64,000 nt of DNA, from contig JASLXV010000058.1 in the NCBI GenBank assembly GCA_030740155.1, positions 22,407-86,406 of the forward strand, given 5' to 3'. The position numbers were made by a program, and so were the translations under genes. The notes beneath the pieces are model-generated. The model had not been told where the DNA came from, did no database searches, and was given only the letters and a program-made list of their open reading frames with translations. How positions within the stretch are numbered: position 1 is the first letter of the stretch; the number at the start of each line of letters is the position of its first letter. Positions 49,126 through 50,731 of this stretch are shown one piece after another. The DNA comes from Dehalococcoidia bacterium (lineage in GTDB: Bacteria > Chloroflexota > Dehalococcoidia > Lucifugimonadales > UBA3495).

Positions 49126-49563
49126 CTAGATCAGGGGGACGGTGGTGCCCTTCGCCCGGTATTGGCGTTCCTCGGAAGTGCCGGTTTGAATAAAGTCGCA
49201 GACGATCTTGTAGACCCGGTCCATTTCTTCATCGAAGTTGCGTTTGAAGAAGTAGGGCGGCACCCAGACTCCTCCAAAGGCGCCAACCACTTCAGGGTAA
49301 TCGTCGATCACGAACTCCGGCTCGAAGGGGACCTTCAGTTCCGCCAGCCGCTCGTGAAAATGGTGGGTGGGCTTTTCATAAACACCGCTGGTAAATGGGC
49401 CCAGTTCGTGTTTCTCCACCACCTCCCAGCGCTCCCCCATGCCGGACCAGATGTATATCTCGTGGCCATCGCTTATCAGCTTTTCAAAGTTCTCTTTGGT
49501 ACCGGGCCGGAGGCTGTCGTCCAGCCCCAGAATCGTGTAATCCACATCGAAAAAGATCTTCAT
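49126..49563 (-). CDS. HAD-superfamily hydrolase-like protein
   Basis: MKIFFDVDYTILG (DxDxT motif I) and ...IYIWSG...IDD. Start set at ATG 49563; the ORF-track start adds 33 implausible residues. G+C is lower than the backbone (50% on one hand-counted line). Confidence 0.5.
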   Translation of the reverse strand: MKIFFDVDYTILGLDDSLRPGTKENFEKLISDGHEIYIWSGMGERWEVVEKHELGPFTSGVYEKPTHHFHERLAELKVPFEPEFVIDDYPEVVGAFGGVWVPPYFFKRNFDEEMDRVYKIVCDFIQTGTSEERQYRAKGTTVPLI

Positions 49564-49719: not shown

Positions 49720-50079
49720 TCATCCGGTACCCTCCAGTGCGGCCTCGATTGACCTCAGGTTCGCTCCCACCACCAACCGCCCGCCGATGCGGGCCAGGGG
49801 CCGGCGGACCAACCGGGGCTCCTCGAGAATCAGCGCGAGCATCTCCTCCTCGGACAGCTCCCGGCCTGCCATGCCCTTCTGCTTCAAGCTGGGGCTGCGC
49901 CAGGCGAATAGCTGAGAGAAACCCACTTCAGAGGCCAGCTCCCGGACCTCACCCTCGGTGAACGGTTCCTTGAAGAAGTCCCGCTCGTCCAGCTCCAGGC
50001 CTTTTTGTAAGAGCAACTCTCTCACTTTGCGGCAGGACGATCAACGGGGCCACCAGTAGAACGCTACTTTATTACTCAA
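49720..50079 (-). CDS. ArsC/Spx-family thioredoxin-fold protein with in-frame TGA (50041-50043) in a U-x-x-C motif; candidate selenoprotein
   Basis: From TTG 50079 (GAGG 6 nt upstream) it reads M/L-SNKVAFYWWPR-TGA-SSCRKVRELLLQKGLELDERDFF.... ArsC/Spx proteins carry 'xxYxxPxCxxCRKAxxxL' at exactly this position. The ORF-track ORF starts after the TGA and lacks this motif. Confidence 0.6.
50007..50025 (-). promoter_or_regulatory. SECIS-like hairpin 15 nt downstream of the TGA
   Basis: The mRNA reads GUGAGAG-AGUUG-CUCUUAC: 7-bp stem (one G-U pair) with a 5-nt loop containing GU. Confidence 0.4.
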
Positions 50080-50177
50080 GAGGTACCTCGCACGAACATT
50101 TTAGGCTAACCGTGTGCATGTAAACGGTCCCTTTCCGTTGTTGGCAAACTAATTTACCGCTGTCAGGCTCGGGAGTT

Positions 50178-50206
50178 TCGACACCCATTTTCTTGTTGGC
50201 TATAAT
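50178..50206 (+). promoter_or_regulatory. Near-consensus promoter of the SieB-like gene
   Basis: TCGACA-cccattttcttgttggc(17 nt)-TATAAT. The -10 hexamer ends 6 nt before GTG 50213, which implies a leaderless or very short-leader mRNA. Confidence 0.55.
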
Positions 50207-50212
50207 GGCGTT

Positions 50213-50731
50213 GTGTTGAGAATGCTGTTTGGGCGCATCGGGTATCCCATTCGAATCCACCTTACCGTATCGTTCGTGACGGCCAGCGCTTTGTTGTTTC
50301 TCGTGTTCGCTTCGGACAACACGTTGGACGATTTGGGGATGATGGATAACCGGACCGTCTATACACTGGGCTTCGGCCTTGGTCTGGTCTTCTCAAGCGC
50401 CGCCATTATTATTCGGTTCGGAGTTCATGCTATCCACTGGGGATTGATCGCTCACAGCCGAAGTACCGTCATCACTACCCGCCAAGAGGGCCTCCATCAC
50501 CTAACTGAACCGCAAAAGGCAATCCTGAGACGCTTTATCATGATCGAATCGAAAACTCAAACCCTGCCATCGGGTGATGGTGCCGTTAAAGGGTTGAGAT
50601 TCGCTCGAATCATTTATCGTTCCGCCGATGCCGTACCGAGCGACACCGTGGACCAAAGTTCTCCCATGTTTGACTATATCATCCATGATTGGGCTTGGGA
50701 TTACATCAACAAACACCCTGAGATTCTGTAA
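50213..50731 (+). CDS. SieB-like (superinfection exclusion protein B family) two-TM membrane protein
   Basis: Two N-terminal TM helices, followed by LTEPQKAILRRFI...TLPSGDGAVKGLRFARIIYRS...FDYIIHDWAWDYINKHPEIL. This matches my recollection of the SieB-family C-terminal pattern (LSxxExxIL...G.v..L....IIy....f.y.i..WAw.yl.knPell). G+C is lower than the backbone (48-55% on three hand-counted lines). The start may be GTG 50213 or ATG 50222. Confidence 0.5.
   Translation: MLRMLFGRIGYPIRIHLTVSFVTASALLFLVFASDNTLDDLGMMDNRTVYTLGFGLGLVFSSAAIIIRFGVHAIHWGLIAHSRSTVITTRQEGLHHLTEPQKAILRRFIMIESKTQTLPSGDGAVKGLRFARIIYRSADAVPSDTVDQSSPMFDYIIHDWAWDYINKHPEIL

Follow-up and report, generated by a model that had tools for sequence, protein, structure and literature searches.

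UxxS 'arsenate reductase' selenoproteins were described from the Sargasso Sea in 2005 (PMC1088965) and 'ArsC-like' selenoproteins in 2006 (PMC1794560). The Global Ocean Sampling (GOS) selenoproteome then listed 42 sequences of 'Arsenate reductase 2', a UxxC family placed in cd03032 (ArsC_Spx) (Zhang and Gladyshev, 2008; PMC2398784), which a 2026 review equates with the NCBIfam model NF041106, ArsC_rel_Se_1, 'ArsC family (seleno)protein' (PMC13188914). An initial annotation of the locus analyzed here had stated that UxxC ArsC-like selenoproteins were already known from metagenomes, and the GOS study confirms this.

The locus lies on the minus strand of the window, by which we mean the whole 64,000-nucleotide stretch of DNA analyzed. 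Comparison with its homologues indicates that it very probably encodes one protein of 119 residues with the thioredoxin-like fold of the ArsC/Spx family, in which the UGA at codon 13 is translated as selenocysteine (Sec, U). Of the published sequences, the UxxC selenoprotein read JCVI_READ_1318105 shares 42% identity with the window protein (E 2e-34), with the U residues aligned.

Reading frame and start codon

The predicted coding sequence (49720–50079, minus strand) is a 119-aa frame that runs from TTG 50079 to the stop codon at 49722–49720 and contains a single internal in-frame TGA, at 50041–50043. This assignment draws on the translation with TGA read as U, on a match to the Pfam family PF03960 and on an AF2 model. 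The TGA is codon 13 and occupies the first position of a U-S-S-C motif, at a column that holds TGA or Cys in the homologues. Read through the TGA, the product starts (M)SNKVAFYWWPR-U-SSCRKVRELLLQKGLE... or, in a longer reading of the N-terminal part, (M)SNKVAFYWWPR-U-SSCRKVRELLLQ..., for a total of 119 residues; the N-terminal peptide spanning the predicted Sec13 is MSNKVAFYWWPR-U-SSCR. The last position of the motif is Cys16 (TGC, 50032–50034), presumably the resolving cysteine of the U-x-x-C. It is nearly invariant in the family alignment and aligns with Cys13 of Spx.

The TTG at 50077–50079 is the sole ATG, GTG or TTG codon between the upstream in-frame TAA and the internal TGA, and hence the only possible start. 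It is preceded at a distance of 6 nt by a Shine-Dalgarno-like GAGG (50086–50089). Three relatives with 90% identity (L062–L064) carry ATG where TTG stands here, behind the same GAGG, and the motif GCGAGGTACC ahead of the ATG start is also found in 90%-identical relatives from other assemblies. In the alignment, the TTG column corresponds to the initiating Met of two further relatives, which start 'MAKQITLYWW' (L025) and 'MAQQAELYWW' (L027).

Under translation table 11, the gene is instead listed as an ORF of 101 aa at 49720–50025, starting from GTG 50025. This ORF is a 5'-truncated artefact. Its product would start in the middle of helix 1, without the redox motif. The initial annotation had observed that the frame stays open upstream of this ORF save for the TGA at 50043–50041, had chosen TTG 50079 with GAGG 6 nt before it as the start, and had argued that the 101-aa version would lack its active site. 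All of its coordinates are correct: the GAGG is read at 50089–50086 and precedes an ATG in the 90%-identical relatives, and both strand 1 and the whole redox motif are missing from the truncated product.

Evidence for selenocysteine at the in-frame TGA

Homologues were sought by a six-frame search, with stops read through, of 301 genomes of the same class. This was more productive than a single-protein search of the genome contigs, which returned 1 locus only. A homologue was present in 81 of the 301 genomes; the frame has exactly one in-frame TGA in 73 of these and none in the remaining 8. Among 31 extracted loci, 27 have TGA and 4 have a Cys codon in the residue-13 column, and no other frame disruption was seen. 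The 12 codons before the TGA are conserved at the protein level across these 31 loci, with Tyr8 invariant. The Cys form P0005 is 67% identical to the window protein. The nucleotide string CCCCGT-TGA-TCGTCC-TGC recurs in assemblies made independently and deposited by ENA, Tara and NCBI; the same TGA is seen in five independent assemblies. An assembly error as the source of the TGA is therefore excluded.

The host genome, a MAG of 3.6 Mb (93.7% complete, with an estimated contamination of 7.65%), contains selA (548.6 bits), selB (350 bits) and selD (376.8 bits), all above curated cut-offs, and a tRNA-Sec of 69.4 bits with anticodon TCA, which ARAGORN also calls as tRNA-SeC (tca). All four components that the initial annotation had proposed to look for, selABD and tRNA-Sec, are thus found in the genome, on contigs of the MAG other than the one that carries the ArsC-like gene. 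The host selD (G000:C32:19124-20044, L013) itself has one in-frame TGA and probably encodes a Sec-containing selenophosphate synthetase; judged by the same feature, so does the selD of another genome of the same order, G107.

The distribution of the Sec machinery was compared with the form of the gene. In the closed genomes G027 and G087, which have the Cys form, neither selA nor selD scores above the cut-off. Five Sec-form genomes were tested, and selA is present in four of them. The remaining one, G107, combines the Sec form with the TGA-containing selD and a 73-bit tRNA-Sec; no match to selA was obtained in this assembly (96% complete, 60 contigs), where the missing selA is probably an assembly gap. 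The Cys-form genomes G063, G142 and G261 have selA above the cut-off, so a genome can carry the Cys form without having lost the Sec trait.

A SECIS-type hairpin lies within the coding sequence (50007–50025), assigned on the basis of folding, conservation and covariation. The element, GUGAGAG-AGUUG-CUCUUAC (50025–50007), begins 15 nt past the TGA, exactly at the coordinates given in the initial annotation, and consists of a 7-bp stem (50025–50019 paired with 50013–50007) and a 5-nt loop, AGUUG (50018–50014). Taken alone, the hairpin is within chance, with z = -1.87 for the 60-nt fold and an equally good fold in 12 of 200 shuffles. What makes it significant is its conservation and covariation among relatives, not single-sequence folding. 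Of the 27 Sec forms, 25 have the hairpin in register with that of the window gene. In these 25 sequences, 99.4% of the stem cells are paired, compared with 37–66% when the 3' arm is slid by 1–3 columns. Both sides of the pair have changed at four of the seven stem positions (for example G-C to A-U, A-U to C-G and A-U to G-C), and the covariation score was reached by none of 500 shuffles. The G at loop position 2 (G27) is invariant; a conserved G in the apical loop is a criterion for recognition of bacterial SECIS elements (PMC1088965). Because the stem lies in coding sequence, in codons 19–25, its conservation is partly a protein constraint, and the compensatory substitutions show up as paired replacements in the protein, such as Val19/Leu24 here and Ala19/Ser24 in L025. 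Distant Cys forms do not have the hairpin. A search of Rfam gave nothing at gathering score in the whole window and nothing up to E = 10 in 49900–50150; as Rfam has no model for this SECIS, the result is uninformative.

Two Sec forms, L052 and L055 (from genomes G206 and G191, with the motif WWSS-U-QQC-RV), show no hairpin in the usual register. Strong hairpins lie elsewhere in both, one at +10 to +26 and one at +29 to +45 past the UGA, which points to an independently shaped SECIS in this lineage. A separate observation concerns the closest full-length Cys form, P0005 (L059:365-736, on a Logan SRR13378643 contig). This locus has TGC instead of TGA and keeps the whole hairpin, GUAAGGG-AGUUG-CUCUUAC, as a 'fossil' SECIS, which suggests either a very recent change from Sec to Cys or a strain-level Sec/Cys polymorphism.

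By analogy with the known bacterial pathway, the hairpin of the window gene, which begins 15 nt past the UGA and has an apical-loop G, would act as the SECIS. It would recruit SelB-GTP, loaded with Sec-tRNA(Sec), to a ribosome that has paused at the UGA, and the charged tRNA would be supplied by SelA, SelD and tRNA-Sec, all encoded in the host genome.

Two readings of the locus dispense with Sec. In one, the TGA is a true stop, the 18 codons upstream of GTG 50025 are non-coding, and the locus is either a pseudogene or a gene for a genuine 101-aa protein. Gene callers do give the 101-aa ORF, and nearly all of 449 database homologues are recorded at 92–103 aa. These short entries, however, reflect the same calling artefact. 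A 101-aa product would be missing strand 1 of the ArsC fold together with the entire redox motif, and GTG 50025 has no Shine-Dalgarno sequence and sits inside the hairpin stem. With the codons before the TGA conserved as protein, the TGA itself retained in most of the extracted loci and the frame otherwise undisturbed, we consider this reading very unlikely. In the other, the TGA is either leaky or read as an ordinary amino acid (Trp or Gly, following genetic codes 4 or 25). The database entries P0013, P0025 and P0048 do show W at the residue-13 position, but this W is a TGA codon translated with another table. TGA terminates the window gene itself and serves as a stop in the ORFs of the genome, and the alternative codons at the residue-13 column of the homologues are for Cys, never for Trp or Gly. 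With a full Sec system in the genome and a SECIS-type hairpin in the gene as well, the recoding reading is extremely improbable. The internal TGA thus almost certainly codes for Sec at the active site of an intact gene, as far as can be judged from sequence. The initial annotation had proposed a Sec-containing ArsC/Spx-like protein, and the decoding machinery, the column of TGA or Cys free of further frame disruptions, and the conserved hairpin with its compensatory base changes and invariant loop G all favor that proposal.

Fold, predicted activity and gene neighborhood

For the Pfam profile search, U was replaced by Cys. The window protein matches PF03960 (ArsC) with 58.7 bits against a gathering threshold of 24, over residues 8–113 and profile positions 1–78 of 79. 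The nearest solved proteins by sequence are Spx regulators (E about 1e-10). In the alignment to Spx, U13 corresponds to Cys10, C16 to Cys13, R61 to Arg60 and R92-R93-P94 to the RRP motif; the U13 column also aligns with Cys12 of ArsC. The AF2 model, built from 49 sequences, has a mean pLDDT of 88.7 and places residue 13 between a strand (residues 4–9) and a helix (residues 14–25), the classical active-site position of the thioredoxin fold. Foldseek matched the model to structures of Spx, YffB and ArsC with TM scores of 0.7–0.84. The label given in the initial annotation, an ArsC/Spx-family protein with a U-x-x-C motif, therefore holds, with U13-S-S-C16 at the Spx/ArsC active-site position. It can be refined, in that the protein is closer to Spx than to a true arsenate reductase.

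A selenol/thiol oxidoreductase that works through a selenenylsulfide is predicted because the U-x-x-C lies at the N-terminus of a helix and its second Cys is nearly invariant. Sec13, at the N-terminus of helix 1, and Cys16 would form the redox center. The selenolate would attack an oxidized substrate, which could be a disulfide or mixed disulfide or another electrophile; Cys16 would resolve the intermediate to give an intramolecular selenenylsulfide, and the latter would be re-reduced by a cellular thiol system. The available sequence comparisons make a general thiol/selenol oxidoreductase the most probable identity of the protein; it is probably neither a canonical arsenate reductase nor a Spx regulator of the Firmicutes type.

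Both of these more specific functions deserve consideration. A glutaredoxin-coupled arsenate reductase, a true ArsC with Sec as its nucleophile, would agree with the placement of the protein in Pfam ArsC, with the alignment of U13 to the catalytic Cys12 and of R93 to Arg94 of E. coli R773 ArsC, and with 'arsenate reductase' as the literature label of such proteins. Yet the score against TIGR00014 is 41.5 bits, where the equivalog cut-off is 106, and the motif is the Spx-like UxxC, whereas ArsC has CxxS. Arg107 of ArsC is replaced by Ala106 and, in the MAFFT alignment, Arg60 by Ala59; R61 is two residues off, in a loop where the alignment is uncertain. The R773 ArsC reference sequence used here is as similar to the query as the PDB ArsC entries are. 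No ars gene is found beside the gene in the window or among ten neighboring genes in five relatives. We consider an arsenate reductase unlikely. The other function is that of a redox-sensing regulator of the Spx/MgsR type, which would bind the C-terminal domain of the RNA polymerase (RNAP) alpha subunit and be switched by a selenenylsulfide. Spx is the best match by both sequence and structure. The CxxC-R-K-A-R motif, Gly53 (Gly52 in Spx), Arg61 (Arg60) and the RRP motif all align, and U13-S-S-C16 falls on Cys10-T-S-Cys13, the N-terminal CxxC redox switch of Spx. Against this, the TIGR01617 score is 58.9 bits where 75.05 is required, the relatives, at 52–73 bits, are all below that cut-off too, and the scores for the Spx equivalog models lie far under theirs. 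The C-terminal tail, the degradation/adaptor region, is missing, as the protein ends about 12 residues short of the Spx C-terminus, and Gly53 is not family-wide, being P, E or S in many members. Sec, moreover, typically sits in catalytic redox sites. A Spx/MgsR-type regulator is accordingly improbable. That the Sec-containing Spx-like branch as a whole consists of RNAP-binding redox regulators with a selenenylsulfide switch, and not of catalytic reductases, seems to us, from its sequences, quite improbable as well; if true, it would represent the first selenoprotein transcription factor, and one widespread in marine Chloroflexota. We retain the general oxidoreductase as the preferred reading of the protein.

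The gene neighborhood was analyzed for context. A HAD-like gene of 145 aa (49126–49563, minus strand) follows 156 nt downstream. Its product starts MKIFFDVDYT (DxDxT) and scores 17.6 bits against Pfam Hydrolase_3, below the cut-off; the table-11 listing extends the gene to 178 aa from an upstream GTG. In tblastn searches, the HAD-like gene adjoins the ArsC-like gene in L025, L027, L056–L059 and L061, all of them close relatives, with a spacing of 156 nt wherever this could be checked. The second gene downstream of the ArsC-like gene is mutL, and the HAD-like gene and mutL are also found downstream in close relatives; no mutS-sized ORF is present upstream within 7 kb. At distant loci, the neighbors include an aldo/keto reductase, LysR regulators, MFS and SulP transporters, a RibD_C protein and a TIM-barrel protein. 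With no ars operon, no partner that recurs throughout and neighbors that vary by lineage, the context led us to no functional conclusion.

Two further observations were made among neighboring genes. In the window, a divergent ORF of 172 aa (50213–50731, plus strand) matches Pfam SieB (superinfection exclusion protein B, PF14163) with 69.4 bits, and a near-consensus promoter, TCGACA-17-TATAAT (50178–50206), lies directly upstream of it. In genome G300, an ORF of 117 aa (L028:2323-2676, minus strand) lies on the opposite strand, as the second gene downstream of the ArsC-like gene and separated from it by an aldo/keto reductase gene. It matches AhpC/TSA only from profile position 48 on, past the active site, and looks like another 5'-truncated call, possibly of a Sec-containing peroxiredoxin.

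Annotation and comparison with known selenoproteins

The product on record, at 101 aa, is without its active site, and the practical value of the analysis lies in correcting the annotation. Essentially every one of the 449 database clusters found is truncated in the same way, as is the gene in 73 of the 81 class genomes that bear a homologue. Neither the window protein nor any of nine diverse relatives reaches an NCBIfam cut-off, which plausibly explains the truncated calls in nearly all of the 449 clusters. A dedicated family model would mend hundreds of gene calls and raise the counts of the marine Chloroflexota selenoproteome.

Comparison with described families places the protein in relation to existing models. 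It shares with NF041106 the fold, the position of Sec in UxxC and the predicted decoding mechanism, but scores 28.4 bits against a cut-off of 85. The nine diverse relatives either score 25–39 bits (maximum 38.6) against the same cut-off of 85 or are not listed, and a search of the whole genome with NF041106 gave nothing above the cut-off (22.1 bits). The window protein therefore belongs to a different subfamily, one without a curated model. With Spx of B. subtilis (PDB 1Z3E, 3GFK, 6GHB and 7F75) it shares the fold at TM scores of 0.73–0.81 and an aligned CxxC-RKAR motif, Arg60 and RRP; it differs in having Sec for Cys10, in lacking the C-terminal tail, in falling below the Spx/MgsR cut-offs and in coming from a different phylum. 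'Arsenate reductase 1 (UxxS)' and E. coli R773 ArsC (the TIGR00014 type) belong to the same Pfam family and share the position of the nucleophile. These proteins, in contrast, have UxxS or CxxS and no resolving Cys, and the equivalents of their Arg60 and Arg107 are not conserved in the window protein.

The closest described system is the GOS 'Arsenate reductase 2', which has the same ArsC fold with Sec first in UxxC. Most of that set differs from the window protein: its majority branch, with GYFRNSUKTCK...GNLRAPT, is 22% identical to it. Three reads in the published list, JCVI_READ_1318105, _1121231 and _1095390070075, belong to the same subfamily as the window protein and have in common with it the signature U-x-x-C-[RK]-K ... 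ERD[IF]F ... RSPS ... EPRLIRRP. Unlike the GOS reads, the window gene was recovered in a Chloroflexota-type MAG, and no annotation has ever given it at full length; its named relatives are from a 'Chloroflexota bacterium' MAG (L025) and a 'SAR202 cluster bacterium' (P0039). The protein is of a kind of selenoprotein catalogued since 2008, and the result is a correction of its annotation rather than a discovery.
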